DNA from: Patescibacteria group bacterium
GTDB lineage: Bacteria > Patescibacteriota > Patescibacteriia > 2-01-FULL-39-33
Direction of reading: 5' to 3'
Length of the DNA: 64,000 nt
Assembly (NCBI GenBank): GCA_041671305.1
Contig: JBAZBX010000002.1
Span: 5,193 to 69,192, forward strand
The position numbers were made by a program, and so were the translations under genes. Numbering within the stretch: position 1 is the stretch's first letter; each line of letters begins with the position of its first letter. Positions 3,758 to 57,265 of the stretch are shown one piece after another. The notes beneath the pieces were generated by a model. It was not told the DNA's origin, searched no databases, and saw nothing but the letters and a program-made list of their open reading frames with translations.

Positions 3758-3907
3758 CTCTTGTCATTCCGACCGAGCTCTCAAGAGCGAGTGGAGGAAT
3801 CCCTTTCGTTAAAATTTAAAGCGATTTCTCCACTACGTCCTGATTACCGGACTTGCGCCACCGCTAAAGCTTTAGCGACACGCGGTCGGTCGGAATGACA
3901 ACGAGAG
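3758..3907. repeat. GC-rich palindromic mini-element, copy A, filling the radA/recG convergent intergenic region
   Basis: Terminal inverted repeats ctcttgtcattccgaccg (3758-3775) and cggtcggaatgacaacgagag (3887-3907). There is an internal perfect palindrome gctaaagctttagc and gtggagg/ctccac pairing. A homologous, internally deleted copy lies at 38108-38203. Confidence 0.5.
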
Positions 3908-23100: not shown

Positions 23101-26100
23101 GTGTCATCTTCAACTCCGATATTTTCTGATATGACTATATTGCCGGAATTAAGTTGCAGATAAGAACCTCCGCTTTCCGCTTTCTGAGGATCAGAAACCA
23201 CCTTGAACAAACTAGAATTCCAAGTAATACTATTCATTTTGGGCTTAACTGATTGACAAGCCTTGGCGGGAGTGGAAGAACAAGCCAAACTGCCGGGAAC
23301 CCAGCCGATAGGATCACTGGATTCTCCAAATGTCATCTCAAAATCACCATTGACTACTTCAGAAGTTCCGCCAAGTTGATTCATAGCATCATACGGATAG
23401 TTGATAGTACCGCTAACCTTACTGTCAACCTCAGAAACCAGAGGATTAGTCATGACGTAGCCGGTTTTATTTTTATCTATCTCTGGTGAATAAGTCGCGA
23501 CAGTACTGGAACTATTTACTTGCCTATTGCAAGAACCGTCATCAGCAAAAGATTGACACATGCTAATATCCAAGCATTTATCATTTTCTGTAAAATTAAA
23601 CTGGGAATCATTTTTGGATTTCTGATAAGTATTGCAAGTCAGCCAATTACTGCAAGTCCTGTCGGCACCGGCTGAAACTATCATATTGGCATTGTTGGTT
23701 TGAATTCCAGCAATCGGCGAAACCCCTCCTCCCGCGACTGACGAAGTGAGATCCGCGTTATAAGTGAGCTGGGAATCAAAAATTAAATTCTTCCAAAATC
23801 TATCTCCCGTAGAGGTGGCCGAATAATCAATCTGTCCCCTATCATTTACCAGAACGCAACCAGTTCGGAAATTAACCTGGCCGTTGCAGGATCCGGAATT
23901 GACTGAACTGCTTAGTTTATAATAAACTCCGGCCAAAGTGACCTGAGAAGTTGAGCTACTGACACCAACAGCACAATCCTTGTTTTCTGCCGAGGAAACA
24001 TAGAAAAGTCTAGAATCAATTTTTGAAGATTGTTGGAAAGGATCTATTATCAAAGTCGCTCCACTACAGGAAGACAATAAACTGATGGCCGAGTCTGAAT
24101 TATACAAAGTATTCGTCTTGATGGAGACGGTATTATCGGATTTTATTTTTAATTTGGTATAGACATTTGTCAACGGATCAACATATTCGTTGCATCCGCT
24201 CTGAGCGCCCTGGCAAATTCCCGCCCATCCCTGATAATCAGTTCTTTCTACTCCAGTGACATTATCAACTATGCCTATTGGTTGGATTTTGGAAGACTGA
24301 TTCTCATAACCAGTGCCAAAGGTTTGATTGGCGGTAGTAATACATGGAATACTAGTACCCTGCTGAACCCAAGAACCGGTTGAGCCTGCTCCTTTGACAT
24401 ATTCACATACTTTGCCATGAGGATCTTTAAAATAAGAAAATGAATTCTGACCCGCATATTCCTCACACCATAATTCATTAAATTTACAAATATCCGTTTT
24501 ATATCGCTCTGGAAGATTTTTCAGATAAGCCGTGCTATAACCAGTAACCTCGTCATATTTATTGATTATTGGCAGGCCGTAAGACGTGCATCCCATTTCC
24601 TTGCTGGAACAAGAATATTTAGAATCCGCCACCAGATAAACGGTATTGTAAGCGGGAACAGATATAGATGAAGTAGCCGGATCAGAATTAAAAATCTCAC
24701 CTCCCGGATAATCATAATTATGGGTATCCACTAATTTCTCACAACCCGCCGCTTCCGCGCGACAAAGCTTAGCAAATGATTTGAGATAAGCAACGTTGCC
24801 AAGCCTATCCTTGTATGCGGAACAGCCAAGCATATTGCCGGGAACACAGCGATGATTATCTACTCCTGCAGTCGTATCAGCGCAAGTCTGAGTAGCCGTA
24901 GGATTATTGTATAATGTCTGTCCATTGCCATCGCCTAAATTATTATCGCAAGAAAAAGGCGTGTACCATGAATTTTCTACCAAATAAACACTATTTTGCA
25001 CCTCTTTCAAAATAATATTATTGAGATAAATATTTACTCCCTGAGGAATATTGAATTCCAAATACTGTTCAGCTGAGGAATCCAAGTTCCAATGGACAAA
25101 AACCGGTCCCAAATCGTATTTTCTCCATTCAGAGCTTACCTGCGCGCGTGACAGGCTAAGATTAGAATTATCCACCTTGGCCATGGCAAAAAAGTCATTC
25201 ACCGAGCCAGCCGAACCGAACTTGATAGAATTAAAAGCAAATGAGACATTGCCTTTCGCCCAGAAAGACAAAACGTATGTTTTATTTTGAGAAATATTTA
25301 CCAAGTGTTTCAGGGTGGAAGTAGAAGCGGTATTTGGATTGGTCAAAGAATGACCGCCGACAAAAGTGGAAACATTACTTAGCGTGGCTGTGGCATTGGA
25401 ATTAACGCCTTGATCATAGAGCCAGAGAGCCGAAGAAGTTGTAAGATCAAAATTACTATTGAGAATATTACGCACATTGTTGCCGGTATTGCCGGTATAA
25501 GCGCGGCAACCTTTCATTTCGGCCGAGCACGTCTTCCCTTCTCCAGGAATCGCCATATAAATACATTCATTATTGCCATTCCAGAAACCATTATGAGAAA
25601 CACAATCCTTGGCAGAATCAATATTATTGGTTTGAGTCAAAGTTCTTCTGTACGGATGGCAATTATCGGAAATGGTAATTGTCTGAGAAAGCAGACGATA
25701 TGACTTAGCGCCGGTCGCATCATAAAATTCCCGACAATCCGGATTTACGGCCATATCTTCTTGTGCGCAATAACCGTCATCAAGAGATTCATCGGTATTG
25801 TCCACACAAAGAGGCTGACCCACACTGCCCGTAGAAGTAGAGTAAGCTAAATCCGTGCAAGGCTTGTTGGAAGCTAAAATATTTGATTTTTTTAATTTGT
25901 ATACTTTTAATTGATAGCCGGCCGTGTCATCGCCTTCCCAAGTGTAGTAAGTGCCATCATTAATCCCCGGTTTTTCACAAACCTGGAAATTAACATAATA
26001 TTCCCTATTTTCCGCTCCTTTGGATAAATCATCCAAATTTGTAAATTCATCGCATCCGGCCAAATCCGCAGAACAATATTTAGGCACACTGTCGGCGATG

Positions 26101-29100
26101 AATTGATTGTATTTAGAAGAGGTAAAATCCGTTTCTTCCTGCTTGTAGACTTGATAACCCACGCACTCACCGGGACAGACATCCAAAGTTTCTGCTACGC
26201 CAGGAACAGCCGGATCCCCGTTGGTAGGAGTATATAATTCACAATCCACTTCGTCTGCCGTACAAACTGGCGCGTATTTAGAGCAAAGTGTGTTTCTATT
26301 CTGCAATACGGAATTAATATTGGTATAATCCGCCCAAGCACCGGTGGTTGAACTCTTGTAGCAATTATAATAATCCGGGGCTTTTTTGAGATAAGCCAAC
26401 TGGCTTGACGGCCTATACGACGGATTGTATTCTGAATAATCGCTTGGAGTTTCAATATTATAAGTCACTTCCTCCAATTGAATATCATCAAAATAAATAT
26501 TGCCTCCCGCATAGTTACTGCCAAGTTTCAAATCAAAATTATAATCTGAACTCATGAAAGCATCCTGGCCTACAGTAAATGACTTGCTCAGCCTCTGCCA
26601 AGAATTAGTTATATTGGCATTGGCACTAGCAGAAACGATAGAATTTTCTCCCTGATATAATCCAATTGAGGAATTGGCAGTTGAAGGCAAATAAACCCAT
26701 CCAGAGAGAATGTATTTCTTTCCTTTTTCAAGAATGGCATTATGACTAGCCTGAGTTAATTTTTCAGCACAACTACCACTACTTGTGCATTGCAATCCCA
26801 AAGAATGCGTTCCGCTATGGATAAAGGTACTAGCCACGGCGCCAGTTCCGGCATCAGAGGCCCATCCCCCATCCAGAGAGAATTCAAATCCGCCGTTATA
26901 AAACAAGTTGCTTCCCAATCCTGCTTTCGTCCTGATAAATTGAGAACAACCATCATTACTGCCATCGCAAGTCTGGACGTTTCTATTAAAATAAATATCG
27001 GCTGAAGTATTTGACACCGCTGGCATATTCAAAGAAACTGAATTTTGCTTACAATCTTCAATTTGTTTTTTGAATTCAAAATTATCAAAATAAGCTTTGG
27101 CCGTAGTGCCTGCCTTGGTAATAATCTTAATAGTGGCCGTGGCATAATTGTCAGCATCAAAATACATATAATAATCATTCCATCCAGCACCAATGCTGGT
27201 AAGCGGAAGATTAATCGCTAATTGATTATCCCGATAAATTTGAACATCTACCTCTCCAGCGCTGAAATAATCAGCCCTGGCAGAAAATTTAAATTGATAA
27301 GTAGATGTGGCGTCCACTTGAATATCTTTCAAGGTTATAATTTCACTGTTGGGAGCTGCCGTTTGCGGAGCGTTGTTGGCGGTTACCACCAAAACAGCAG
27401 AATTATCCTTGCCCTTATTTGAATCCCAATAATCCCTGGTATATGCATCCATGGAAGATAATTCTTCTAACCAAAACTGGGGCAAGAAAGAATTGGTGGC
27501 CTTCTGATTGAAATTTTGATTTAAGCTGGACAAAACATCAGCCGTTTCCAAGCAATTTTCCAAATTACAGCTTGAAGCGCCATAGGGAATGGTGCAACTT
27601 CCCTCAAAAGAACAGGTTTTGGTGGAAGAATTATAAGTACAATGATTATCTCCGGTACAAGACGTAGGAGAACAGGCAGAAGCCATGGTTACGATATTTG
27701 CGGTGCTACTGAGGTCGCTAACCAGATGCGACTCAGAAATATTTAAATTTGGGGTAGCAGTACATCCGCTGGGATCATTACAAATTCCGGCAACTAAATC
27801 AGGAGCTAAACTTCTCCATATTTTGGAAATCGGATCAAATAAATTACTATACCACCTGCAACCGGCATTTTGTGAATTACAATCTCTATAATCCAAAGAG
27901 TTGGAGAGGTAAGACTGCGCCGAACCCTGACGACTCTTGAAAGTCTGACAGGTATTATTTCTGGAATCGCACGTTGTGCCGAAATTCCAAAATCTTCTTT
28001 CTTCTGTGCAATACCCATAGGAAGAGCAGGAGCCATCGGCATTTTCCTTGATGCATTGCTGTTCATCCGCGCAATACTGATCCCTATTCATGGTTCCCTC
28101 TTGAGAATTCTGAAAGGTATTATGATCGCCGTATCCCTGTCTTCTGCAATAAACTTCCGGCGCCTTAAATACCCAATAAGGATCAACTAGGCCGTAAAAT
28201 TTGCTTCCAGACTTATCAAATTGATCCATAATATCGCCCAAGGTTATATTTTCCTTGCTGTCCTTGAGATAATTGGCGGCTATTTCCCAGCCTATTGGCA
28301 CAATCCTGTATTTTCTCAAAATAAGAATGGTTCTATAGGTAATGGCGGTGGTATAATTTTGCGAGTTAGCATTATTGGGCACAAATAACCTGTTTTTGAA
28401 ATCATCGCCGACCTGCCATACTTGTTTTTTGTCTTTGATGTATGAAGAAAAAGCCTGGTCAATTACGCAGTCAGTCGGCCCTGGATTATTTTTGGCATCA
28501 TCCGGACAAGTCATCAGCTTGCTCAAAATGTCATAAGGACCGCCAATGGCATATTCGCTTTGTTTTAATTTATTGAATCTGGCCTCGGCTCCGGCCGCAC
28601 CCTCAGAATATGGCTGAGCGTCTGGGTTTAAAAGACTGGAAAGATCAGGCAAAGGCAATCCGGATAAAAAGCTATTGTTGTTATTGCCTGACGATCCGCT
28701 AGTAAACAATCCTGACTTGAAATTATTAAGCAATTGTCCAACCAAAGTTTGAGCAAAGGTATTAACAAAATCAACTATAGTTCCGGTAAAAACTTCTTCC
28801 GCCAAAGTGGACTTTTCGGTGACGGCCGGAAGCATATCCTTCACCACATCGCCAGGCGTCAAAACTTTATTGGCAAAATCAGTAACACTCTTCCAACCGG
28901 TCGGATCCACCACTTTTTCTCCCACTTTGATCTTATCGGCGACATAAGCGATTGATTCGCCACTGAGCTTCAAATAAACAGAAATGTCATTCTCCCCTTC
29001 ATTCAAAGAATTATTGTACTCAAAAGCAAAATTCGGATTGGTAATGGCGGTGTTCCAATTGGTCATCATCTTGGAAAAAGTACAACGCACCTGCCTAGGC

Positions 29101-29756
29101 TTTTTCCAATTTATACTGGTTTGTATAGACAAGCTAAGAGTCGGACTTTTACATAAATCCACTCCATATCTTTGTCCCACCTGATCAATAAAATCTCCCA
29201 AAGCGCTGTCCCCCAAATTCTGCAAATACGCTCCCCAACCCTCTGTGATAAATAATGGTTTTTGTCCCTTACCACCGGAAGCAATCCAAGTCGCCGTGTC
29301 AGCCGCTAACTGCTGAGACATCAGAGAGAGAGATGATTTAAAGGCGGAAGCGAGAGCCACTCTTCTGGTTTCTTTTTTCAAGTCATCAGAAACTTTTTTG
29401 GCATATTCTTTCCATTGGCTACGATTCGTCAAATCGGCATTATTCTTTTGGGCTTCATCTATACAAGCCATTTGTGCTTGCGTGGCCGCTAACTGAGCCT
29501 GTCCGCAATCCGTGGGAGAGGCGCAAGGCTTAGCCACAATGCTTTGGCATTTTGCCACAGCCGCCGAAGCCGCCTTATCCGCCTGATCCGGCAAACCGAC
29601 TTCTCCGCTGTTTCCAGCTGAAAACCAGTCAGCAGATTGGTCGGCGATATCTGCTTCCGCTCTTGCCATTATTGGAAACGCGGACAAAGTAAAAAACATC
29701 AACAACGCAAAAATAGCTACCGAAAAATAAATTTTATTGTGAAAATTAAACTTCAT
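20112..29756 (-). CDS. Giant (3214 aa) cysteine-rich exported protein with carbohydrate-binding-module-like (CBM4/9, ConA-like) domains
   Basis: One uninterrupted 9.6 kb ORF. N-terminal signal/anchor IYFSVAIFALLMFFTLSAFPIMA. More than 150 Cys, with a recurring module GCxx(Y/F) (GCRAYTGNTG, GCSAYKDRLG, GCTSYGLP, GCNEYVDPL, GCSQFIRT, GCDEFTNL, GCRWYSNLF...). NGGFE/NGDFE motifs (YNGGFEFSLDGGW, VNGDFEMTFGE) and the YFDNFEF/YFDDIQLEEV strand ends are typical of CBM_4_9 domains. Confidence 0.6.
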   Translation of the reverse strand: MKFNFHNKIYFSVAIFALLMFFTLSAFPIMARAEADIADQSADWFSAGNSGEVGLPDQADKAASAAVAKCQSIVAKPCASPTDCGQAQLAATQAQMACIDEAQKNNADLTNRSQWKEYAKKVSDDLKKETRRVALASAFKSSLSLMSQQLAADTATWIASGGKGQKPLFITEGWGAYLQNLGDSALGDFIDQVGQRYGVDLCKSPTLSLSIQTSINWKKPRQVRCTFSKMMTNWNTAITNPNFAFEYNNSLNEGENDISVYLKLSGESIAYVADKIKVGEKVVDPTGWKSVTDFANKVLTPGDVVKDMLPAVTEKSTLAEEVFTGTIVDFVNTFAQTLVGQLLNNFKSGLFTSGSSGNNNNSFLSGLPLPDLSSLLNPDAQPYSEGAAGAEARFNKLKQSEYAIGGPYDILSKLMTCPDDAKNNPGPTDCVIDQAFSSYIKDKKQVWQVGDDFKNRLFVPNNANSQNYTTAITYRTILILRKYRIVPIGWEIAANYLKDSKENITLGDIMDQFDKSGSKFYGLVDPYWVFKAPEVYCRRQGYGDHNTFQNSQEGTMNRDQYCADEQQCIKENADGSCSSYGYCTEERRFWNFGTTCDSRNNTCQTFKSRQGSAQSYLSNSLDYRDCNSQNAGCRWYSNLFDPISKIWRSLAPDLVAGICNDPSGCTATPNLNISESHLVSDLSSTANIVTMASACSPTSCTGDNHCTYNSSTKTCSFEGSCTIPYGASSCNLENCLETADVLSSLNQNFNQKATNSFLPQFWLEELSSMDAYTRDYWDSNKGKDNSAVLVVTANNAPQTAAPNSEIITLKDIQVDATSTYQFKFSARADYFSAGEVDVQIYRDNQLAINLPLTSIGAGWNDYYMYFDADNYATATIKIITKAGTTAKAYFDNFEFKKQIEDCKQNSVSLNMPAVSNTSADIYFNRNVQTCDGSNDGCSQFIRTKAGLGSNLFYNGGFEFSLDGGWASDAGTGAVASTFIHSGTHSLGLQCTSSGSCAEKLTQASHNAILEKGKKYILSGWVYLPSTANSSIGLYQGENSIVSASANANITNSWQRLSKSFTVGQDAFMSSDYNFDLKLGSNYAGGNIYFDDIQLEEVTYNIETPSDYSEYNPSYRPSSQLAYLKKAPDYYNCYKSSTTGAWADYTNINSVLQNRNTLCSKYAPVCTADEVDCELYTPTNGDPAVPGVAETLDVCPGECVGYQVYKQEETDFTSSKYNQFIADSVPKYCSADLAGCDEFTNLDDLSKGAENREYYVNFQVCEKPGINDGTYYTWEGDDTAGYQLKVYKLKKSNILASNKPCTDLAYSTSTGSVGQPLCVDNTDESLDDGYCAQEDMAVNPDCREFYDATGAKSYRLLSQTITISDNCHPYRRTLTQTNNIDSAKDCVSHNGFWNGNNECIYMAIPGEGKTCSAEMKGCRAYTGNTGNNVRNILNSNFDLTTSSALWLYDQGVNSNATATLSNVSTFVGGHSLTNPNTASTSTLKHLVNISQNKTYVLSFWAKGNVSFAFNSIKFGSAGSVNDFFAMAKVDNSNLSLSRAQVSSEWRKYDLGPVFVHWNLDSSAEQYLEFNIPQGVNIYLNNIILKEVQNSVYLVENSWYTPFSCDNNLGDGNGQTLYNNPTATQTCADTTAGVDNHRCVPGNMLGCSAYKDRLGNVAYLKSFAKLCRAEAAGCEKLVDTHNYDYPGGEIFNSDPATSSISVPAYNTVYLVADSKYSCSSKEMGCTSYGLPIINKYDEVTGYSTAYLKNLPERYKTDICKFNELWCEEYAGQNSFSYFKDPHGKVCEYVKGAGSTGSWVQQGTSIPCITTANQTFGTGYENQSSKIQPIGIVDNVTGVERTDYQGWAGICQGAQSGCNEYVDPLTNVYTKLKIKSDNTVSIKTNTLYNSDSAISLLSSCSGATLIIDPFQQSSKIDSRLFYVSSAENKDCAVGVSSSTSQVTLAGVYYKLSSSVNSGSCNGQVNFRTGCVLVNDRGQIDYSATSTGDRFWKNLIFDSQLTYNADLTSSVAGGGVSPIAGIQTNNANMIVSAGADRTCSNWLTCNTYQKSKNDSQFNFTENDKCLDISMCQSFADDGSCNRQVNSSSTVATYSPEIDKNKTGYVMTNPLVSEVDSKVSGTINYPYDAMNQLGGTSEVVNGDFEMTFGESSDPIGWVPGSLACSSTPAKACQSVKPKMNSITWNSSLFKVVSDPQKAESGGSYLQLNSGNIVISENIGVEDDTPYYLSFWVNTTNIAGSGDGTNLPYAEVRYLFLNGEGNALERNSNGSYNIITINSGPQLFGPKWESADTLKINQGTPWKHVVYRVTPPSGATSMKIALFSLAPSLEKGFDNTKLGGYTMWDNIGVNTILDTDGTEVSQIARTCRVYPEADAPGCRYNKDNTQYYGQYGYCILKDPAINSQQCLQWWPVDNIAGESVNDYSPYYQERMPLYYCVSKAEKKMNFSNFTLNANAANLGKYASVMDLVESHTGQEVKFYPFSDVPASMRTLLRYPNVYRFFYSGLYVGFDKKNFFPMPLFVFMKPYESFGIAGELPFYFGTNAPEAESMYSAENLAASCTNNGGSSCGVCAGGISSGETTPCNPLTNYRENTSVVDIHLNSERGSKECPKIFDLNGNNYEECLPLSRTFCGIGDSGSECQQDDSCNDFELANTCNYLASHNDYDSSGFLIIKDKSLWGSITTALEDIGKFIMSPFTMTQDDYWGGWGMFGFNIAKFPVAFGLPWHTLSALKDMSGIVSGLIEWINDETVAIGYVAFKIVTDTDPNYSGQASDPHPDVQGDILGYAFGSGGTAASDKAYASGVIGGISSNGFTAGYCDKVVQVVDSSGQQKAYSARTSPGSSYKTNDTDCVVNALYGDMFETVADGLSLFSNSNMSSCTDAGCGGGLSEYVVGNPNQCFDHSMYCLRLNGSTPRNYCGNYVGLTNSNTLGLKCCGNSVSDEKLNNSFSSVCNSDGSLNSNYFCSGGTYIYANIYHYNRYNYNTDQNPFASIIAPITGQYPNEWDSKDDVPYNQPLFYEENMSKTDIGQSRMGQVHDVDELKKLFAKSYGVWEWRANKDGSPIEGGYYSLVSSMDWSVPTENCGGISKREAHEASTTLSTSARMCFNYPEIKHVTTTNLLATTTDPAELRKVKSNSPIKLEFTAEIDPEQLPIRAYSVSWGDDTTTTFSGTALLSRPNPSDPFVLYHYYGDIAGTGNIIIKVKDNWNYEGAKTWNTETGSLN

Positions 29757-32752: not shown

Positions 32753-33937
32753 TTATCTAAACAATAAATAAAGCAGGGACATCAGACCGGCAACAATAAA
32801 TATAGCTCCCCAAAAAGGCATAAATAACTGCACCAGAATTAAACATAAGATAATGGCAATAATTTTTCCAATTACGAGCGACATTTCAAAAAATGTTACT
32901 CCTTCCATGACTGAATTATCTTGGGCTCTTTCGTAGGTAGTGGCCGTAATCGGAATAGCAATGGCTTGTTTGGATAATCTGGAAGCTGTATCCAAAAGCA
33001 AAACGCCCCCAACCGAAGAGATTAACGCCCTAAGCATCCACACAAAACAATAAGCTATTTCTCCTAGTTTCAAAAGCGCGTCATGACCATTTTTGTCAGT
33101 TAACTTTCCAATATACAGATAAACTAGCAAGGTGATCAATGTTGCCAATCCCGTGATTACGCCCAGACTCAAAAAATCTTTAATTACTACAAACATAAAT
33201 ATAGGCCATACCACCAAAACTACAAATTCTTCTCCATAGCCCAAAAGAGGAAGAAATCTTCTAAAATTTTCACGCGCGAATAAACGCTTAAAAGCTCCCT
33301 TATAATCAAATGATCCCGGAACCAGATTTTCCTTGGTGACCAGCATGGGCACATTGGACAAAATCATAATTATGGCAGCGAAAATAAACAAAATTTTGAA
33401 ACCATAAAACTGCAAAATCATGCCTCCCACGACCGGGCCAGCCACATAAACCAAGGCCTCCAAAATGATGAGATTTCCGACTTCCCTTCCCTGCTCTCCA
33501 TCCACTGAAAATTTGGCGAAATCCGCATGATAAGCCGGCCAATAAAACATCTTCCAAAGTACATATAGGATTATGGCCACAAAAATTAAACCAATATATT
33601 TGGAAGCTCCAAAAAGACAGAGATAAAATAGAGCCGTGAAGACACAGCCCAAGGCGATGGAAATTTCATAACCAAATTTTTTAGCAAACTTCGCCCCCAA
33701 AGGTACGCAAAACAAATAAGCAATATAAACTGCCAGATAAAACAAAAGGATAAGAGAAACGGTCAGGCGCAAATCATATTTTTTGATAAACAAAGTAAAG
33801 AGGAATACCGGCTCAAAAATACTGACCATAGCAATGGCAAAATTCAAAATAATCGTAGCCGAATAAAGCTCCCTCACCTGCCTCCTCATACGGCAAGGCA
33901 AAAAAGAAACCACTAGTGATTTTATTTTATTATCCAT
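32753..33937 (-). CDS. MFS-type transporter (putative)
   Basis: 394 aa with about 12 predicted TM helices and a central cytoplasmic loop. MFS-like organisation. Confidence 0.45.
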   Translation of the reverse strand: MDNKIKSLVVSFLPCRMRRQVRELYSATIILNFAIAMVSIFEPVFLFTLFIKKYDLRLTVSLILLFYLAVYIAYLFCVPLGAKFAKKFGYEISIALGCVFTALFYLCLFGASKYIGLIFVAIILYVLWKMFYWPAYHADFAKFSVDGEQGREVGNLIILEALVYVAGPVVGGMILQFYGFKILFIFAAIIMILSNVPMLVTKENLVPGSFDYKGAFKRLFARENFRRFLPLLGYGEEFVVLVVWPIFMFVVIKDFLSLGVITGLATLITLLVYLYIGKLTDKNGHDALLKLGEIAYCFVWMLRALISSVGGVLLLDTASRLSKQAIAIPITATTYERAQDNSVMEGVTFFEMSLVIGKIIAIILCLILVQLFMPFWGAIFIVAGLMSLLYLLFR

Positions 33938-33941
33938 GATA

Positions 33942-34949
33942 TTATTTACGTCTCAAAATTTTCTTGATAATTCTATAATAAAGATAACCGAAAGCATCAA
34001 CAGAAATATTCCAAGCCCCAACATATTCTGTCAATTCGGTTTGCGGAGCAAAGCCTACCTTGAAGCGGGTTACTCCCGGCCACTTCGCCTCATTGGCTCC
34101 GCCAAAATCATAATGTTCACACCACCTGAATTTACCCATGGTAATTCCTTCCCACTGCAGAAGATACGGCACCATCTTGTCGCGATACTCGTGATCCGAA
34201 GCGCCGTGGAGATAAATACACCATTTGCCAAAGATGATCATAATATTAGCCGCCACGACTTTTTCTTCATATTTGGCTACTATTAATCGTAATATTCCCG
34301 CCTCGCCAAGAACTTTGACCATTTCCTGATAATATTTTTTTGAATGGGATTTAATATGATCACGTTTAGCCGTTTTCTGGGTTAATTTCCAAAAATCTTG
34401 AAAATAGCTGGCTCCTTCATCAATCTGTATGCAATGCTTCTGAGCCACTTTGATATTGTAACGGGTCTTGGATTTCATCTGTGCCATAATCTTTTCATCA
34501 TCCTGAGTCAAATCCATAACCAAACTACTCTTTGGTTGGACTTCTCCCGCAAAATCAAACCCTAAATTTTTCAAAATATTTCTAGTCTCCGGCGTATCCG
34601 GCCAGGGCGGATCCATTTTGACAAAAACCGCGCCATTTTTCTTGGCTAATTTTTTGGCTTCTCTAATTAATAATCTAAACTCCGGCGCATCAGCTTCCGT
34701 TATTCCCACCGGACCACGCGGAGCATAAAAATAGCATTTGCCCAATGGCAAGTCATATTTAATCAGTTGAATTACAGCTCTAAAAATTCCTTCATCACTG
34801 GTAAGCGCCAATCTCACGACGGGTCTACCCACGGTCGCTTGAAATTCTCCCCATTGCCAAGATTGCAAAAATCCCCCATCAGGGGCATTTTGCTTGACGA
34901 AATCATCCCAAATTTCACTCCAAGAATTGTCACAAATGATGAGTTTCAT
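33942..34949 (-). CDS. FemAB-family aminoacyltransferase (peptidoglycan interpeptide-bridge formation, FemX/MurM-like)
   Basis: N-terminal FLQSWQWGEFQ block, characteristic of the FemAB family. GNAT-like duplicated fold, about 335 aa. Clustered with a membrane acyltransferase and a transporter. Confidence 0.6.
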   Translation of the reverse strand: MKLIICDNSWSEIWDDFVKQNAPDGGFLQSWQWGEFQATVGRPVVRLALTSDEGIFRAVIQLIKYDLPLGKCYFYAPRGPVGITEADAPEFRLLIREAKKLAKKNGAVFVKMDPPWPDTPETRNILKNLGFDFAGEVQPKSSLVMDLTQDDEKIMAQMKSKTRYNIKVAQKHCIQIDEGASYFQDFWKLTQKTAKRDHIKSHSKKYYQEMVKVLGEAGILRLIVAKYEEKVVAANIMIIFGKWCIYLHGASDHEYRDKMVPYLLQWEGITMGKFRWCEHYDFGGANEAKWPGVTRFKVGFAPQTELTEYVGAWNISVDAFGYLYYRIIKKILRRK

Positions 34950-35398: not shown

Positions 35399-38300
35399 CT
35401 ATATCACAAAACTAATCAGCTTATTGGCGACAAAAATAGTTTTTTTGATTTCTGCGCCTTCAAGATATTTCTTCACATTATCATCTTCCTTGGCCAACTT
35501 TATGGCATCGGCTTCAGAGATGTCTACTGGCAATTTCAACTTGGCACGAACCTTGCCATTAATTTGGATAACTAACTCTATTTCCTCGTCTTTAATTTTA
35601 CTCTCATCATACTTCGGCCAAGCTTCTTTAAAAATACTTTCCTTGTGTCCTAACTTGTTCCACAGTTCCTCTGTCATATGCGGAGCAAACGGAGCAAGAA
35701 TTATTAAAAACTTTTCCACAAATTCTTTTGATACCACCTTTGATTCATTAATTAAAACCATCATGGCCGATATTGCCGTATTAAATCTCATATTTTCAAT
35801 ATCTTCGCCAACTTTTTTTATGGTTTTATGCAACAAAATTTCTAATTCTGGAGTTATTGTGCCGTCATTAGAAAAATTATTAACTAAATTCCAAACCTTT
35901 TCCAAAAATCGGCTTATTCCGATAATTCCTTTGGTATTCCAAGGTTTGGCGTCTTCCAAGGGACCCATAAACATTTCATACATTCTGAAAGCATCGGCAC
36001 CATTTTCCTTGACCTGATCATCAGGATTAATTACATTACCCTGAGACTTAGACATTTTCTCGCCGTTTTCAGCCAGAATCATGCCTTGATTGACCAACTT
36101 CGTAAACGGCTCTTCCTGCGGTACATAACCCAAATCATAGAGAACCATATTCCAAAATCTGCCATAGAGCAGATGAAGCACGGCATGCTCCGCACCGCCC
36201 ACATAGACATCAACCGGCATAAAGTATTTCAACTTTTCCAAGTCAGCAAAAACCTTGTCATTTTGAGGATCAATAAATCTCAGCCAATACCAAGATGAAC
36301 CCGCCCATTGAGGCATAGTGTTTGTCTCACGATGCGCTTCTCCTCCGCAAATCGGACATTTGGTCTTGACCCAATCTGTAATATTTACAAGTGGCGACTC
36401 ACCGGTGCCAGTCGGCTCATACTTGTCAACTTCTGGCAAAGTCAGCGGCAATTCATTTTCCGGTACGGGAATCCAGCCAGTGGTCTTGCAAGCCAAAACC
36501 TTTTTCAAAATTTCCGGCGCTTCAAAAACCGTGAAGTGCTTATGTCCATGCCATAATTCAAAATTCCAACCTTCCGGCAAATCCTTGTGCGTATCCGTAT
36601 GAATGTACGGATCATCATCAGAGAGAATAATATTTTTATTAATCGCTAATTGCGTCACTTTTTCCCAATCAATCGGTCTTCCTTCCCAGAATTCACGCAA
36701 AGATTTTACATCCGAACTGGGCGCGCCTTGTTCAAATAATTTCCATAGTTCATCGGACAGCTTGCCGATAGCCGAACCCACCAAAAATAAATGTCCAATT
36801 TTCTTTCCTGTTTTTTCAATTAGTCTCAGCGCCGCATTACTGCCCAGACTGTGGCCGATAATTATGTCATTTTCCCCCATTTTCTCCATATATGGTGTAA
36901 GCTCTTCCATCCACTTCTCAATTTTCGGACTGGCACTAGTAGTCATGGTCGGAGTAAACACTTCAAACCCGTTTTGTTCCAATTCTCTTTTCATCCAAGG
37001 AAACCAATTGCCATCTCCGGATCCTTCCCAGCCATGAATTATCAAAACTTTTTGTTTCTGTTTCTTGCAATTCTCGCAATAGACCAATGGAATCGGTTCA
37101 CCCCAATATCTTTGGCGAGAAAAAACCCAATCACGCAATTTATAATTCACCGCTTTATGACCGCATTTATTTTCTTCCAGCCAGGACGTCATTTTACCAA
37201 TCGCCTCACTTGGTCTCAAATCGTTGAGAAACTCCGAGTTGATCATTACTCCCGAATCAATATCTACAAAAGCTTTTTCACCATTTTGGAATATATCCCA
37301 GTACCACTTATGGTTTGGCAAATTTATAAAAGATTTCACTTCCGAAGAAGAAATCCAGTCGCCTTGATGATGTTCTGTATCTATTTTATCTGATCGCTTT
37401 TCATTTTTTAATTCCACCAAAAAACACAGAGAGTCTGCATATCTATTTACGCCCTTATGCTCTGCATAATGATTATTATGAATTTCGCCACCTATCTGTT
37501 TGATGGATTTTACATTTTGATATCCCGTTTCCTCCGTCATCTCCCTGACTGCTGCCTGCTCAGGAGTTTCATTAGCTTCTACCCCTCCCATTACGAATGA
37601 TTTCCAATCATGTTTCCCCCAATCAAGGCAATAGTATGAGTCATCAGCCCAGTGCTTGACCAAAACACACACCATTTTTCTCCTTATGGTTTCTTTGTCT
37701 AATTTAATTTTGTCTTTTTCCGTAACCGCAGTAAACAAAGGAGCCACCACTTGGATTATTGGCAAATCAAATTTATTAGCGAATTCCCAGTCTCTCTCAT
37801 CGTGGTATGGCACGGCCATGATTGCTCCAGTGCCATAAGAAGCCAGCACGTAATCAGAAATCCAAACCGGAATTTCTGTGCCGTTAACCGGATTAATGGC
37901 ACTAATTCCTTTCAATTCCACACCAGTCTTATCCTTGGCCAAATCAGTCCTTTCCAAATCAGTTTTATTTTTGGCTTGAGCAATATATTTTTCAACTTCC
38001 TTGATATTTTTAATTTTACCTTTCAACTCCTCAATCAGTTTATGCTCAGGAGAAATGACCATGTAAGTCGCTCCGAACAAAGTATCCGGGCGAGTTGTAT
38101 AAACACGAATTGTCATCCCGAGGAAGTCAGACCCAACTGACAACCGTGAGGATCCCGCGGGATTGCCACGCTTCGCCCTTGAAGGCTCGCTCGCAATGAC
38201 AGCAAAATCCACCTCCGCTCCTTCGCTCCGACCAATCCAATTCCTTTGTAAAGCTTTGATGGATTCCGTCCAATCCAAATTATCCAAACCACTAAGCAAC

Positions 38301-38908
38301 CTATCCGCATAAGCCGTGATGCGAAGCATCCATTGTCGCATATCCTTTTTAATCACTTCCGTACCGCAACGATCGCACTTGCCATCTTTGACCTCTTCAT
38401 TGGCTAATCCCGTTTTGCACGATGGACAAAAATTTATCGGCACTGTGGCTTCATAGGCCAAGCCTTTTTTGAATAATTGCAAAAAAATCCATTGCGTCCA
38501 TTTGTAATAATTAGGATCAGTAGTATTTATTTCCCTATTCCAATCATAGGAAAATCCCAAAGACATAATCTGTCTTTTGAAAGTTTTAATATTCTGTTCA
38601 GTTATAACTTTCGGTTGTGTTCCGGTTTTAATCGCATAATTTTCTGCCGGAAGTCCAAAGGCGTCCCAGCCCATGGGATGCAAAACATTAAATCCTTTCA
38701 AGCGAAAATACCTGGAATAAATATCCGTGGCCGTATATCCTTCGGGATGCCCGACATGAAGACCAGCCGCTGACGGATAAGGAAACATATCCAAAACATA
38801 CTTTTTGGGCTTACTGCCAAAGTCTTCAGCGCGGTTAATCTGACTCTTTTCCCATTGATCCTGCCATTTACCCTCACCATTATCTTTTAAAAAATCTTTA
38901 TATGTCAT
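35399..38908 (-). CDS. leuS: Leucyl-tRNA synthetase with two inserted enzymatic domains (NUDIX and alpha/beta hydrolase)
   Basis: HIGH region [14 protein letters not shown]. Editing-domain TTRPDT and [19 protein letters not shown] blocks. KMSKS ([10 protein letters not shown]). C-terminal anticodon-binding domain. At 1169 aa it is about 300 aa longer than typical bacterial LeuRS. Confidence 0.9.
36494..37060 (-). other. Alpha/beta serine-hydrolase domain (YdeN/RBBP9-like) inserted in LeuRS (approximately aa 617-805), between the CxxC halves of a zinc knuckle
   Basis: [19 protein letters not shown], nucleophile elbow [19 protein letters not shown] and a downstream His-containing block. The insertion is bracketed by YCENCKK upstream and KCPICGG downstream. 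Confidence 0.55.
37304..37696 (-). other. NUDIX hydrolase domain inserted in LeuRS (approximately aa 405-535), after the editing domain
   Basis: Perfect Nudix box [22 protein letters not shown] (Gx5Ex7REUxEExGU) within [12 protein letters not shown]...GDWISSSEV. It is flanked on both sides by canonical LeuRS sequence. Confidence 0.6.
38108..38203. repeat. GC-rich palindromic mini-element, copy B, inserted in-frame within the leuS coding sequence
   Basis: Termini ttgtcatcccgagg...ctcgcaatgaca. The reverse complement gtcattgcgagcgagccttcaagggcgaagcgtggcaatccc matches gtcattccgaccgagctctcaagagcgagtggaggaatccc of copy A. It encodes the LeuRS segment [27 protein letters not shown], which E. coli LeuRS lacks at this position. 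Confidence 0.5.
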
Positions 38909-47544: not shown

Positions 47545-49374
47545 GTGAATTTATTATCTTCGTGGAGAAAAAAAATTTCTAGTTTTTTTTCTGCCCAAAA
47601 CAAGCAACTTAGAGAATTTCAGAAGCAACACAGGCTGGATATGCATCTGGTCAGTTCTTTGAATAAATCCAAATTCCCAACCCTCAAGCAATTAAAACAT
47701 CTACCAAAAATGTTGAACAAAAAAGAGAAAAGAACTATGGGAGTACTAACCGCCATAGTGCTTTTGGGAGTAATTCTGCTAATTACAAATTTATATTTTC
47801 TCGTTACTACCCCCATACCGCAAAGAGGTGGCCAATACACGGAAGGATTAATCGGCGCTCCACGCTTTATCAATCCCCTATTGTCGCAAACCAATGACGT
47901 TGATCAAGATATTTCCAAGCTGATTTTCTCCGGCCTGCTGAAATTTGACAAGGACAGAATATTAACTCCCGATCTGGCTGAAAGCTATGAAATTTCCGAC
48001 AATCAATTAGTCTATACCTTCCACCTGAGACAAAACATTAAATGGCATGATGGCGAACCATTCAAAGCCGATGATGTGATTTTTACCATGGCTTCAATCC
48101 AGGATCCGGAATTCAAAAGTCCTTTATCCATAAGTTTCCAAGGCATCATGGCGGAAAAAATTGATGACAATACCATAAAATTTACGCTCAAGGAACCATT
48201 TGCCCCTTTCCTGGGACTGATGACTTTTGGAATTTTGCCGGAACATCTATGGTATAATGTGCCCGCCACCAATGCCGATCTGACAGAACTCAACAAAAAA
48301 CCCATAGGCACAGGCTCATGGCAATTTGATTCATTCAAAAAAGACAAGAATGGAATTATTTTTTCTTACACGTTAATCCCTAATCCATATTATTATGGCG
48401 ATAGGCCAAACTTGGAAAAAATTGTTTTTAAATTTTATGGGGATTTTGCTTCTGCCATAGATGCTCTCAAAAACAAAAGCGTGCAAGCCATCGCTTATTT
48501 GCCACAGGAGTTCCAAACAGAGCTAAAAAAATATAAAAATATAAATTATCAAAAATTAGATCAGCCTCAATATACGGCCATGTTTTTCAATCAGAAAAAT
48601 AATGGCTTCCTCCAAGCTGATTATATTAGGCAGGCTTTAGCTCTATCCATAGACAAGCAAAAAATCATAGATACAGTACTTCCCGGCAACGCCAATATTA
48701 TTGATACCCCCACCCTGCCAGGAGTTGATACCAATCCGGACATAAAAAAATATAATTATGATCCGCAGTCTGCCGTAACTCTCCTGGAGAAAAACGGCTG
48801 GCAACTTAACTCCACTACGACGAACGGAATTACCCAGCAAGTAAGGCAAAAGAAAAATCAAACTTTGGAAATTACCATAACTACGGTTGATCAGCCTCAA
48901 AATAGCAAAATTGCCGATCTCATCAAACAAGACTGGGAACAAATAGGTATCAAGACAAACATCCAGCTCGTAGATAAATCCAAAATTCTTCAAGATGTCA
49001 TAAATACCAGAAAGTATGAAGTGTTGCTCTTTGGAGAAAACTTAGGTTCGGATCCTGATCCGTTCCCCTTTTGGCATTCTTCGCAAAATGAATATCCCGG
49101 TTTGAACTTGGCTATCTTTTCCAACAAAACAGTAGATCAACTGTTGGAAAATGCCAGAAAAACCAATGATTGGGAAGCCAGAAAAAAGAATTATCTTGAA
49201 TTCCAAAAAATAGTCGCTCAGGAACTTCCTGCTATTTTCTTATACAATCAAATATATATTTATCCTCAAGATAACAGCATCAAGGGCTTTGATGTCAAAA
49301 ACATCTCGGCGCCGTCTGATCGTTTTGCCAACTTATACCAATGGTATGAGAAAACCAAGCGAATCTGGAAATAG
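47545..49374 (+). CDS. ABC transporter substrate-binding protein, family 5 (oligo/dipeptide-binding), membrane-anchored
   Basis: SBP_bac_5-like length and blocks (ISDNQLVYTFHLRQNIKWHDGEPFKADDV, PNPYYYG). N-terminal TM anchor VLTAIVLLGVILLITNLYFLV, preceded by an approximately 65-aa basic leader. The true start may be a later Met. Confidence 0.65.
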   Translation: MNLLSSWRKKISSFFSAQNKQLREFQKQHRLDMHLVSSLNKSKFPTLKQLKHLPKMLNKKEKRTMGVLTAIVLLGVILLITNLYFLVTTPIPQRGGQYTEGLIGAPRFINPLLSQTNDVDQDISKLIFSGLLKFDKDRILTPDLAESYEISDNQLVYTFHLRQNIKWHDGEPFKADDVIFTMASIQDPEFKSPLSISFQGIMAEKIDDNTIKFTLKEPFAPFLGLMTFGILPEHLWYNVPATNADLTELNKKPIGTGSWQFDSFKKDKNGIIFSYTLIPNPYYYGDRPNLEKIVFKFYGDFASAIDALKNKSVQAIAYLPQEFQTELKKYKNINYQKLDQPQYTAMFFNQKNNGFLQADYIRQALALSIDKQKIIDTVLPGNANIIDTPTLPGVDTNPDIKKYNYDPQSAVTLLEKNGWQLNSTTTNGITQQVRQKKNQTLEITITTVDQPQNSKIADLIKQDWEQIGIKTNIQLVDKSKILQDVINTRKYEVLLFGENLGSDPDPFPFWHSSQNEYPGLNLAIFSNKTVDQLLENARKTNDWEARKKNYLEFQKIVAQELPAIFLYNQIYIYPQDNSIKGFDVKNISAPSDRFANLYQWYEKTKRIWK

Positions 49375-49715: not shown

Positions 49716-51620
49716 ATGAACAATTCAAATTTAAATGAACGAAGGCCAAACCAGACCTTCAAACCAAATCTCGGTAACACACAAAAACAAAAAACGATTA
49801 ATCTGGATGCGGATAAATATTTTCCCGTCCCAGTTAAATCTCCTACCACTAGTCAGACGAGTCCCAAGGTAGTAGCAAAACCACACTACCCACAACCGAA
49901 TAGACTACACCAAAATAAACCTGTGACAAAAAACATTACTCCAGAAAAAAGATCTGGCGACGTGTTAAGGGTTATTCCCATCGGTGGCTGCGAAGAAGTG
50001 GGACGCAATATGACCGTATTTGAATACGGCCAAGATATTGTAATTCTGGATATGGGAATCCAATTTCCCGAAGAAGACATGCCGGGAATAGATTATATCA
50101 TTCCTAATGCAGACTATCTGAAAGGAAAGGAAAAAAATATCCGTGGCGTAATATTTTCACACGGACATCTGGATCATATCGGAGCAGCGCCTATTCTTTT
50201 GGAAAAACTAGGTAATCCTACAATTATCGGCGCAGATCTAACTCTGGCTATGGTAAAACATAGACAAGAAGATTACAAAAAGGGCAGTGCCGATAAACTC
50301 AAGACTGTAGTTGTCAAAAATCTCAATGAAAAAATTAAATTAGGTATTTTTGAAATAAGCTTCTTCCAGATTGAGCACTCCATTATGGATGCCATGGGAA
50401 TAATTTTCAAAACTCCAACTGCTACCGTCATTCATCCCGGAGACTGGACTCTAGAAAGAGACATCGCAGGCAAACCGATATTGGATTATACTTTCTTGAG
50501 TAAACTTCCCAGGCCAACAGTGCTAATGATGGAAAGTTTAGGCGCCATTGATGTCCGAAAAAGCGCCACCACTGCGGAGATGAAAAAAAATATTACCCAA
50601 CTGCTTTCCGATGCTCCAGGCAGAATTATCCTGGGGACATTCTCTTCTCAAATAGAGAGGATAGACTGGCTTTTTGAAATTGGCCAAAAACTTGGCAAAA
50701 AAATCGCGCTTGACGGCTATAGCATGAAGGTCAATGTAGAAATAGCCAAAAAATTAGGATATATCAAAATAGCCAAAGGCCAACTGATCAAAATTGAACA
50801 AATTGATGATTTTCCCGACAACAAAGTCATGGTGCTTTGCACCGGAGCTCAAGGCGAAGGCAATGCCGTACTATCCAGAATTATTGAAGGCACAAACCGC
50901 CATATCAAAATTAGAAAAAACGACACCGTAATACTTTCATCCTCAATCATCCCAGGAAACGAAAGAACTATCCAAAGACTCAAAGACAACCTGTATCGCC
51001 AATGCGATAATGTCATTCATGGCAGTATCATGGATATCCATGTTTCCGGACACGGCAACAGAAATGATATTATTTATATGCTGGAACAGATAATGCCGGA
51101 TTATTTCATCCCTGTTTACGCCAATCATTATTTTCTCAAGGAAGCCGCCAAGCTGGCTCGTGAGATTGGATTTAATCCCGAGAGAATATTCGTGCCGGAT
51201 AATGGACAGGTTATGGAATTTGATAAAAATGGCGGAAGAATCACGGAACAGAAAGTTCCCTCCAGTTACGTTTTCGTGGACGGCCTCGGCATTACAGATA
51301 GCAACAATGTTGTACTTCGCGATAGAAAAATGATGGCCGAAGACGGCATGCTAGTCGTCATTGCCACAGTTGATGGAAAGAATGGCCAGCTTATCCATAA
51401 TCCCGATCTTATCTCGCGCGGTTTTGTCTATATGAAAGAAAATAAACGGCTGATTGAAATGGTCAGACAAAAAGTCAAAAAATTAATCAAAGAAAACAAT
51501 CCCAAAGTCGCGCCCGATGATCAATACCTGAAAGAATTGATTAGAAACGAAATCGGTAAATTCCTTTATCAGAAAACTGAAAAGAGACCCATGATTTTGC
51601 CGGTGATTATAGAAGTATAA
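49716..51620 (+). CDS. rnj: Ribonuclease J (metallo-beta-lactamase/beta-CASP RNase) with an approximately 85-aa low-complexity N-terminal extension
   Basis: LRVIPIGGCEEVGRNMTVFEY RNase J start block. MBL motif FSHGHLDHIGAAP. beta-CASP and C-terminal domains. The basic Pro/Gln/Asn-rich N-terminus has no internal Met before the conserved start block. Confidence 0.85.
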   Translation: MNNSNLNERRPNQTFKPNLGNTQKQKTINLDADKYFPVPVKSPTTSQTSPKVVAKPHYPQPNRLHQNKPVTKNITPEKRSGDVLRVIPIGGCEEVGRNMTVFEYGQDIVILDMGIQFPEEDMPGIDYIIPNADYLKGKEKNIRGVIFSHGHLDHIGAAPILLEKLGNPTIIGADLTLAMVKHRQEDYKKGSADKLKTVVVKNLNEKIKLGIFEISFFQIEHSIMDAMGIIFKTPTATVIHPGDWTLERDIAGKPILDYTFLSKLPRPTVLMMESLGAIDVRKSATTAEMKKNITQLLSDAPGRIILGTFSSQIERIDWLFEIGQKLGKKIALDGYSMKVNVEIAKKLGYIKIAKGQLIKIEQIDDFPDNKVMVLCTGAQGEGNAVLSRIIEGTNRHIKIRKNDTVILSSSIIPGNERTIQRLKDNLYRQCDNVIHGSIMDIHVSGHGNRNDIIYMLEQIMPDYFIPVYANHYFLKEAAKLAREIGFNPERIFVPDNGQVMEFDKNGGRITEQKVPSSYVFVDGLGITDSNNVVLRDRKMMAEDGMLVVIATVDGKNGQLIHNPDLISRGFVYMKENKRLIEMVRQKVKKLIKENNPKVAPDDQYLKELIRNEIGKFLYQKTEKRPMILPVIIEV

Positions 51621-56800: not shown

Positions 56801-57265
56801 ATGTCTGATATCAACAAAACAACTCTCGGTGAAATAGGAGTGTTTACCAATATGATCGCGTCCGGCCCGGTTATTATTCAAGCGCACGACGGGGTTGAAA
56901 AAACTCTGTTGGTTAAACACGGCGACAGACCTATTGAAGAATTAAAATGGAAATTCTGCGGCGGAAAAATTTTGAAGGGAATGGATTTGGAAGAAAACGC
57001 CATCCGTGAAGCTCAAGAAGAAATCGGCGCCACAGTCAAGCTCATAAAGCCTCTTAAACCGCTAGTCATTTGGAATGAGGTTCCTGAAACTGGGTCAGAA
57101 CAGCCGGAAGCAATTATCCTTATTCATTATTTAGCCACAATTGATCAAGAACCGAAAAAAGGTAAACAAATTTTGGCCATGGAATGGTTTGATATAAATA
57201 ATTTGCCAGACGATTGTGCGCCCAATATAAAACCGATCATCCAAAATTATTTGGATTTGAAATAA
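56801..57265 (+). CDS. NUDIX-family hydrolase (divergent Nudix box)
   Basis: LLVKHGDRPIEELKWKFCGGKILKGMDLEENAIREAQEEIGA has an REx2EExG core with shortened spacing. It is similar in its LVKH...W..GG layout to the NUDIX insert in LeuRS. Confidence 0.5.
   Translation: MSDINKTTLGEIGVFTNMIASGPVIIQAHDGVEKTLLVKHGDRPIEELKWKFCGGKILKGMDLEENAIREAQEEIGATVKLIKPLKPLVIWNEVPETGSEQPEAIILIHYLATIDQEPKKGKQILAMEWFDINNLPDDCAPNIKPIIQNYLDLK

Follow-up and report, generated by a model that had tools for sequence, protein, structure and literature searches.

Few enzymes are as conserved as the aminoacyl-tRNA synthetases (aaRSs), whose accessory domains have time and again exposed new biology (editing, signalling). 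In the case of the aaRS editing modules (CP1 of Leu/Ile/ValRS, INS of ProRS and YbaK/AlaX/ProXp) an extra hydrolase works with the synthetase, while the isoleucyl-tRNA synthetase (IleRS) with a GNAT domain (NCBIfam NF040702) is a precedent for a class I aaRS that bears an unrelated enzyme domain. A comparable arrangement is found in NadM-Nudix, where a HIGH nucleotidyltransferase (nicotinamide mononucleotide adenylyltransferase) is fused to a Nudix domain that degrades its nucleotide product (PMC7824862). Here, we analyse the leuS gene found in a 64,000-nucleotide stretch (hereafter the window; contig JBAZBX010000002.1, positions 5,193 to 69,192 of the forward strand) of a Patescibacteria group bacterium (assembly GCA_041671305.1). 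The gene (window positions 35399..38908, minus strand, as is every leuS feature given below) codes for a bacterial-type leucyl-tRNA synthetase (LeuRS) of 1169 aa with three in-frame insertions, two of which are entire enzyme-like domains: a Nudix domain in the CP1 editing domain and an alpha/beta serine hydrolase in a zinc knuckle.

The window protein follows the logic of the editing modules (i.e. additional hydrolases associated with a synthetase) but differs from them in the folds employed (alpha/beta-hydrolase and Nudix) and in keeping CP1 intact alongside. Relative to IleRS-GNAT and NadM-Nudix, both the host and the domains are others, and the additions are internal (CP1, zinc knuckle) rather than terminal fusions. 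Compared with the known bacterial LeuRS (Thermus thermophilus 1H3N/2BYT, Escherichia coli 4AQ7 and the ~800-aa Firmicutes type), it is ~290-370 aa longer, and it is devoid of the leucine-specific domain present in Thermus and E. coli (the Thermus domain is missing from the 1h3n alignment, and none lies ahead of KMSKS). Among the LeuRS chains recovered by the PDB search, all of 575-880 aa, none carried a Nudix or an alpha/beta-hydrolase domain.

The leuS reading frame (ORF call, where ORF stands for open reading frame) is single and uninterrupted, and no second leuS was found within the window. The whole protein scored 1017 bits against the NCBIfam model leuS_bact (TIGR00396; curated equivalog cutoff 548), and Pfam recovered the editing domain (PF13603, residues 222-393, 183 bits), tRNA-synt_1 (153 bits) and Anticodon_1 (88 bits). 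The overall fold is that of a LeuRS, and when aligned to its T. thermophilus counterpart (1h3n; E = 6e-206) the protein matches in four collinear pieces, up to the C-terminus. Hence, the collinear and complete LeuRS with two inserted domains proposed in a preliminary description of this DNA is upheld by Pfam, TIGR00396 and the 1h3n alignment.

Residue conservation was judged over an alignment of 77 homologues. The HIGH motif (HVGH, residues 51-54; 38747..38758) and the KMSKS loop (951-955; 36044..36058) were invariant, as were five residues (T271, T272, R273, D275 and T276) of the Thr-rich editing motif TTRPDT of CP1 (271-276; 38081..38098) and, within the GTG...HDERD block (359-373; 37790..37834), the editing Asp D370 and D373. 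The ZN-1 pairs CPSC (161-164) and CDRC (178-181) occupy 38366..38428, with C161, C178 and C181 invariant; in the ZN-2 knuckle the first CxxC (CENC, 611-614; 37067..37078) has an invariant C611 and a C614 conserved in at least 90% of the sequences, while in the second (CPIC, 851-854; 36347..36358) C851 and C854 are both invariant. The anticodon-binding and C-terminal tRNA-binding domains (PF08264 at residues 1026-1129, and the 1h3n alignment) occupy 35399..35833. Whether or not a LeuRS carries inserts, it shows little or no variation in HIGH, KMSKS, the CP1 editing residues and any of the zinc ligands. The window ORF is thus an intact bacterial-type LeuRS, which keeps every motif checked for the synthetic site, the zinc sites and CP1 editing. 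As CP1 editing is intact in all relatives, the inserts supplement it and do not substitute for it.

The Nudix insert (residues about 389-551, 162 aa; 37256..37741; delimited by the 1h3n alignment) takes the place of T. thermophilus residues 363-378, a loop late in CP1 to which we refer as hot spot B. PF00293 matched residues 432-528 with 44.9 bits (gathering cutoff 21.1), the fold is that of a Nudix domain, and the Nudix box (441-463; 37520..37588) is a perfect Gx5Ex7REUxEExGU (E447, R455, E456, E459, E460), just as had been noticed before. Over 30 Nudix inserts, which are 18-69% identical to the one in the window, G441, E447, R455, E456, E459 and E460 are invariant. Downstream of the box (37442..37471) these inserts share a subfamily-specific block composed of an aromatic pair (480/481) and an HKxxNR motif (484-489; K in 29/30, N in 27/30, R in 28/30), and W518 (position 129 of the insert alignment) is near-invariant. 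The aromatic pair stands at +17/+18 from the box (F/Y in 28/30 and 27/30, respectively), with Phe being as frequent as Tyr; Dunn and colleagues are said to have pointed out, in 1999, that Nudix enzymes hydrolysing diadenosine polyphosphates, Ap(n)A, have a Tyr ~16-18 residues past the box (a lead, not a curated rule). The nearest Nudix structures (PDB profile, Foldseek) include hydrolases of diadenosine tetraphosphate (Ap4A) and RppH. The insert shares its canonical fold and perfect box with small single-domain Nudix enzymes (Enterococcus faecalis 2AZW, AvrM14, the Ap4A hydrolases 3I7U/4MPO/1KTG, NudI and RppH) but is only ~15-25% identical to them, has its own HKxxNR block and aromatic pair, and sits in CP1.

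The second enzyme-like insert (residues 615-810, 196 aa; 36479..37066; hot spot C) is a YdeN/RBBP9-type serine hydrolase that falls, in the 1h3n mapping, between T. thermophilus residues 442 and 443. It begins directly after the first CxxC of ZN-2 and ends ahead of the second one, which agrees with the placement between the two zinc-knuckle halves given in the preliminary description. Its assignment, also anticipated there, is carried by PF06821 (Ser_hydrolase; residues 621-786, 66.5 bits, gathering cutoff 22), by the YdeN structure 1uxo (phmmer, E = 3e-18) and by a lid-less alpha/beta-hydrolase fold of ~190 aa. The nucleophile elbow GHSLG (685-689, with S687; 36842..36856) corresponds to a GHS.G motif kept in all the examined hydrolase inserts; the SDDDP block (763-767; 36608..36622) contains, from motif and alignment, the putative catalytic Asp, and HKHF (789-792; 36533..36544) the putative catalytic His (H791, the His being at least 90% conserved). 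Hydrolases inserted at all three LeuRS hot spots (sites A, B and C, see below) retain the same conserved blocks (HG, GHS.G, an Asp-containing one and His-Phe). What separates the window hydrolase from YdeN (Bacillus subtilis, 1UXO) and RBBP9 (2QS9), both PF06821 members, is its embedding within another enzyme.

The full-length AlphaFold2 model, built from the 77-sequence alignment, reached a mean predicted local distance difference test (pLDDT) score of 89.6 and a predicted template modelling (pTM) score of 0.77. Most 10-residue blocks across the Nudix and hydrolase inserts had pLDDT values above 90, values below 50 were confined to residues 242-259 (within the third, small insertion), and the Nudix segment modelled alone reached 93.9. 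Both inserts are thus predicted to be autonomous, well-folded domains, and apparently catalytically competent ones. It is hardly credible, on this evidence, that they are catalytically dead structural decoration (e.g., extra tRNA- or partner-binding surfaces). Such a role would suit the six deviant boxes among the 42 Nudix-type inserts and the less regular Asp block of some site-A hydrolases; against it, the window insert and 35 others retain every catalytic residue of the Nudix box, the hydrolase Ser and His are conserved, and selection is purifying. In the comparison of the window with its relative L001, the ratio of nonsynonymous to synonymous divergence (dN/dS) was 0.077 for the hydrolase and 0.082 for the LeuRS core. 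The Nudix domain of the same pair has diverged much further (41% identity; proportion of synonymous differences, pS, 0.81 vs 0.61 for the core), and its synonymous sites are saturated, which limits its dN/dS. The pattern is reversed in the comparison with L008, in which the Nudix domains are 68% and the hydrolases 54% identical. The two modules hence have histories that differ from that of the core and from each other, which points to their cassette-like exchange.

The architecture is not a peculiarity of one assembly. Both inserts were found at the same positions on independent contigs (NCBI, ENA, JGI, Logan) that encode LeuRS with 79% (P0001), 75% (P0002) and 72% (P0003) identity to the window protein; among species-representative genomes, the nearest were metagenome-assembled genomes (MAGs) of Candidatus Buchananbacteria (L001, 75%; L008, 72%), and the ultra-small bacterium behind the window is itself Buchananbacteria-like. 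A Nudix-bearing LeuRS is encoded by MAGs under the labels Buchanan-, Moranii-, Kaiser-, Uhr-, Woese- and Parcubacteria; L001, L008, L013, L015 and L004 have the gene order uvrA-leuS-femAB-MFS, either complete or in part. The chance that we are dealing with an artefact (be it chimeric assembly, intein or mobile element within leuS) is therefore next to nil. A short palindromic repeat is truly present in frame, yet elsewhere in the gene (residues 237-266); the ORF is uninterrupted, with a uniform composition along its length (G+C of 0.38-0.43 in the inserts, as in the remainder of leuS), and the two-insert architecture recurs, at 72-79% identity, on contigs of different studies with conserved flanking genes. 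As the same architecture is found in independent assemblies, the chimeric misassembly that had been raised as a concern is excluded within the limits of cross-sample evidence. An intein was also considered and rejected: no Hint/intein family was among the Pfam hits at E <= 0.1, and the junctions (CENCKK/QKQKV and CKTTG/WIPV for the hydrolase, PIIQVVA/PLFT and FVDID/SGVM for the Nudix domain) lack splice-junction residues (Cys/Ser...HN), in line with the earlier observation.

The fusion had been called novel, and this stands in part. No paper describing a LeuRS with Nudix or hydrolase domains, in the candidate phyla radiation (CPR) or elsewhere, was found in the full-text literature (subscription-only literature lying outside the scope of this search), so that the architecture is undescribed in the searchable literature; yet it is no one-off, being present in many Patescibacteria. 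The sequences have been public for years (e.g., P0064 from the Woesebacteria MAG GW2011_GWA1_39_21b), and the JGI product name of P0057 reads 'leucyl-tRNA synthetase/predicted alpha/beta hydrolase family esterase'.

A census of the window protein and its 120 best homologues (MAFFT alignment; all of them patescibacterial or neighbouring LeuRS) delineated three insertion hot spots in patescibacterial LeuRS. Site A (query residues 238-266, at the start of CP1) holds a Ser_hydrolase in six homologues, a hydrolase together with an ASCH domain in P0097, a Y1 transposase-like domain in P0087, and a Ham1/ITPase plus a hydrolase in P0135 and P0250. Site B (query about 389-551) accommodates Nudix domains with a canonical box (36 sequences) or a deviant one (six), Ser_hydrolase (four), and further domains without a family match, including a weakly nucleotidyltransferase-like one in P0050 (19.6 bits, below the cutoff of 21). 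Site C (query 615-810) contains Ser_hydrolase in 15 sequences and a ~130-aa domain in eight (P0023, P0024, P0027, P0052, P0054, P0059, P0075, P0110). The latter domain, placed in ZN-2, has an ASCH-like motif that was not confirmed: there was no Pfam match, PH0355 was hit at E = 0.25, and the comparison with the ASCH-bearing segment of P0097 gave an hhalign probability of 6%. Double hydrolases are present in P0031 (sites B and C) and P0128, and a GIY-YIG domain is found at a fourth position in P0061 and P0062. At least six kinds of domain have thus been inserted. On a neighbour-joining tree (761 core columns) the insert states (both, either, other or none) are intermingled even within the query's clade, and the non-patescibacterial LeuRS of the homologue set are all without inserts. 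As judged from these sequences, patescibacterial LeuRS is subject to repeated gain, loss and mosaic exchange of cassette-like modules at the three hot spots.

At site A the window protein itself carries only a mini-insert (residues 237-266, 30 aa; 38111..38200), of which some 23-30 aa, where CP1 starts, are unmatched in 1h3n and which is predicted to be a disordered loop. At the DNA level, it is coded by an in-frame palindromic GTCATT...GATGAC element (GTCATTGCGAGCGAG...CTCGGGATGAC). A related copy of 137 bp with inverted GTCATTCCGACCGA termini lies in the intergenic region 3763-3899, after a gene that ends at 3753. The same repeat-element DNA starts at the identical LeuRS site in L004, and repeat-like peptides (VIASEAKQS..., VIPAEAGIQ..., ...SLGMT) occupy this site in many homologues. 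Folding of the repeat as a structured RNA was not significant (z = -1.48), and this idea was dropped. Palindromic elements inserted in frame within protein-coding genes were reportedly described in Rickettsia by Ogata and colleagues in 2000. The LeuRS mini-insert is alike in being an in-frame palindromic copy that gives rise to a surface loop, but it belongs to another element family in another phylum, and its site has been struck across many lineages and takes up entire domains besides. Site A is, going by these recurrences, a repeated in-frame target of the repeat element and, in other lineages, of large domains as well.

The variety of inserts raises the question of whether the modules are coupled to LeuRS at all. 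In the main rival to a functional coupling, all three insertion loops would merely be tolerant, and the inserts would be small housekeeping enzymes (Nudix, esterase, ITPase and others), captured in streamlined genomes, that hitch-hike passively and benefit from the constitutive expression of an essential gene while acting on substrates unrelated to leucylation. This scenario, which we deem somewhat unlikely, draws on the patchy presence of inserts among very similar cores, on the mosaic histories of the two modules, on the many unrelated domains (GIY-YIG, Y1 transposase and nucleotidyltransferase-like ones included), on the repeated strikes of in-frame palindromic repeats at site A and on the existence of both domains as free-standing proteins. 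It does less well with the observations on the relatives of each insert that follow, and with selection on the hydrolase being as strong as on the LeuRS core.

When 1.84 billion representatives were searched exhaustively by phmmer, the hydrolase insert had 1953 hits. The top 12 were all long proteins, and free-standing YdeN-like proteins of ~190 aa first appeared at 42% identity. From 28 long hits checked by Pfam, 24 were LeuRS or fragments thereof and none was another aaRS with the hydrolase; the remaining four comprised a fusion of adenylate kinase with the hydrolase and three fusions to sequence without a family match. Thus, among the nearest relatives of the window hydrolase, embedding is almost confined to LeuRS. 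The site-A hydrolases represent a subtype with a deletion of ~11 aa, which is shared by two site-C hydrolases; because three sites and two subtypes are involved, several independent insertions of the hydrolase into LeuRS are required, and both this recurrence and the lack of other aaRS hosts speak against mere hitch-hiking. The contig of the adenylate kinase fusion (P0190; L087, 5001-6248) bears genes of archaeal type (Trm5/TYW2, diphthine synthase-like).

On its own, the Nudix insert found no homologue in a word-indexed search; its relatives were retrieved instead by a 30-sequence profile of Nudix inserts. They include free-standing members of the same subfamily (~160 aa; P0271-P0274, with P0274 located between unrelated genes) and two stand-alone proteins (P0277 and P0275) that correspond to an excised CP1 with the Nudix domain at site B. 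The existence of a stand-alone CP1-Nudix protein argues that the two form a functional unit, and its retention as an independent gene is hard to reconcile with passive hitch-hiking. This protein resembles a free trans-editing factor, and P0277 may indeed be a free-standing factor. P0277 (287 aa; L081, 6001-6864) is encoded in CP066684.1, a complete, archaeal-looking 875-kb genome labelled Candidatus Aenigmatarchaeota (DPANN archaea), with a fibrillarin gene nearby; its CP1 is of the bacterial LeuRS type, its Thr-rich editing motif is degenerate (VERLET), and it was probably transferred from Patescibacteria.

We reason that the Nudix and hydrolase inserts may both be active accessory hydrolases that clear, in cis, by-products and mis-products of leucine activation; we hold this as a tentative reading, possible rather than probable. 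Both domains would be tethered next to where the aminoacylation and editing sites are entered. To the serine hydrolase we would ascribe an alpha-aminoacyl hydrolase activity towards hydrophobic amino acids in activated or esterified form, with released aminoacyl-adenylate (aminoacyl-AMP) and aminoacyl esters of adenosine or of tRNA A76 as candidate targets. The Nudix domain (or Ham1 in relatives) would act on adenine-nucleotide derivatives, either dinucleoside polyphosphates of the Ap4A type or aberrant nucleoside triphosphates (NTPs). It is known that aaRSs, LeuRS included, form Ap4A in a side reaction, and the insertion of two nucleotide pyrophosphatases, Nudix and Ham1, in LeuRS, together with the adenylate kinase fusion, suggests adenine-nucleotide products. 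Given that close relatives lack the inserts, these are not needed for aminoacylation itself. The hydrolysis of Ap4A-type compounds and the deacylation of mischarged products suggested in the preliminary description are plausible and come near to this reading.

The part assigned to the hydrolase leans on RBBP9, the sole biochemically characterised member of PF06821, which is acylated by single hydrophobic amino acids (Leu/Ile, Phe, Tyr, Trp). Its chemistry requires a free alpha-amine on the substrate, which the enzyme anchors by S76, Y99 and E108 (PMC8866121). RBBP9 has also been reported, as cited in PMC7730578 (for PMID 32196348), to activate the valyl-ester nucleoside prodrug valacyclovir. 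By analogy, this would be the chemistry required of an aminoacyl-AMP or aminoacyl-A76 hydrolase.

Several observations weigh against the clearing of leucine-activation products by the inserts. The hydrolase is far nearer to YdeN than to RBBP9, and the alpha-amine contacts S76 and Y99 are replaced by Leu and Ala, respectively, in the phmmer alignment (E108 falls just outside the aligned stretch); on account of these two amine-anchoring residues, the insert should not be classed as an RBBP9 orthologue. The Nudix subfamily found no specific match by PDB profile, Foldseek, NCBIfam or PADLOC: its best PDB profile hits (~41 bits) were spread over decapping, Ap4A and NTP enzymes, with the Ap4A hydrolase structures reaching only 32-37 bits at best. 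While the canonical box is kept in 36 of the 42 Nudix-type inserts (the window's included), it is deviant in the other six and also in the free-standing relatives P0271-P0274. Furthermore, the inserts are very patchy among LeuRS cores that are more than 80% identical, so that any function they have must be dispensable, and the occurrence of mobile-element-type domains (GIY-YIG, Y1 transposase) and palindromic repeats at LeuRS sites fits with mere loop permissiveness.

A bolder version of the by-product-clearing scheme, according to which the inserts constitute new cis quality-control activities of an aaRS (a hydrolase that deacylates aminoacyl-AMP or aminoacyl-tRNA, and a CP1-linked Nudix domain that destroys adenylate-derived by-products), seems to us rather doubtful. 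Two further rivals place the activities elsewhere. In the first, the hydrolase would be an aminopeptidase freeing N-terminal Leu or other hydrophobic residues from imported peptides close beside the synthetase, and Nudix/Ham1 would salvage or sanitise the adenine-nucleotide pool, in an organism unable to make its own amino acids or nucleotides. Patescibacteria are generally auxotrophic, the window encodes an oligopeptide-type solute-binding protein (PF00496), and the fusion of adenylate kinase with the hydrolase would suit such a supply of substrates; however, there is no sign of leucine specificity, the RBBP9 amine-binding residues are not conserved, leucine diffuses freely (so that tethering would be of little evident value), and the stand-alone CP1-Nudix module is left unexplained. 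We regard it as distinctly unlikely. The second rival, very unlikely in our estimation, would have the inserts shield or repair tRNA(Leu) or LeuRS against toxins or antibiotics (e.g., by taking off groups attached to the tRNA 3'-end or by hydrolysing inhibitors that mimic aminoacyl-adenylate). The rapid turnover, mosaic exchange and diversity of the inserted domains would suit such conflicts, and Nudix, alpha/beta hydrolase, nucleotidyltransferase-like and GIY-YIG domains are frequent in conflict systems (compare PMC7824862); nevertheless, PADLOC returned only a weak generic match for the Nudix domain (PDC-S07, 24.7 bits) and none for the hydrolase, and the neighbours of leuS are housekeeping genes in a conserved order.

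If the inserts do act on by-products or mischarged species, they would embody a new proofreading or clean-up chemistry and would provide a substrate context for orphan families (YdeN/PF06821 and a Nudix subfamily); were the hydrolase to deacylate, it would represent a structurally new class of aaRS proofreading domain, and patescibacterial LeuRS would serve in nature as a plug-and-play scaffold on which enzymes of fidelity and clean-up are mounted. Should they be passengers only, they would still be a clear natural case of domain insertion into an essential enzyme. Either way, LeuRS emerges as a modular scaffold in a huge, mostly uncultivated bacterial radiation, into which a serine hydrolase was recruited several times independently, and the apparent link to in-frame palindromic repeats could serve protein engineering and throw light on the streamlining of genomes.

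The window contains a free-standing Nudix gene (56801-57265, plus strand; 58 bits; box GGKILKGMDLEENAIREAQEEIG, in which the first Glu of Gx5E is replaced by Met) that had been put forward as the donor paralogue of the insert. This origin was discarded, as the two share only the generic box (BLASTP E = 1.4; hhalign matched only 49 columns around the Nudix box). Paralogues of either insert were absent from the window (tblastn) and from the 3 kb around leuS in 80 related loci.

Downstream of leuS and on the same strand follow a gene of the FemAB family (aminoacyl-tRNA-dependent peptidoglycan bridge transferases; 33942-34949, minus strand, 155 bits) and a gene for a transporter of the major facilitator superfamily (MFS; 32753-33937, minus strand). 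Farther along, an ORF of 3214 aa (20112-29756, minus strand) has a carbohydrate-binding module as its sole Pfam match at E <= 1e-5, and the next one (1134 aa; 16691-20095, minus strand) has no Pfam match at this threshold; both resemble the giant proteins of surface type that are typical of Patescibacteria. The window also encodes a TraG/VirB4-like P-loop ATPase (11760-13700, minus strand) and an RNase J (49716-51620, plus strand), which together with the solute-binding protein mentioned above (47545-49374, plus strand) are consistent with a small, scavenging bacterium.

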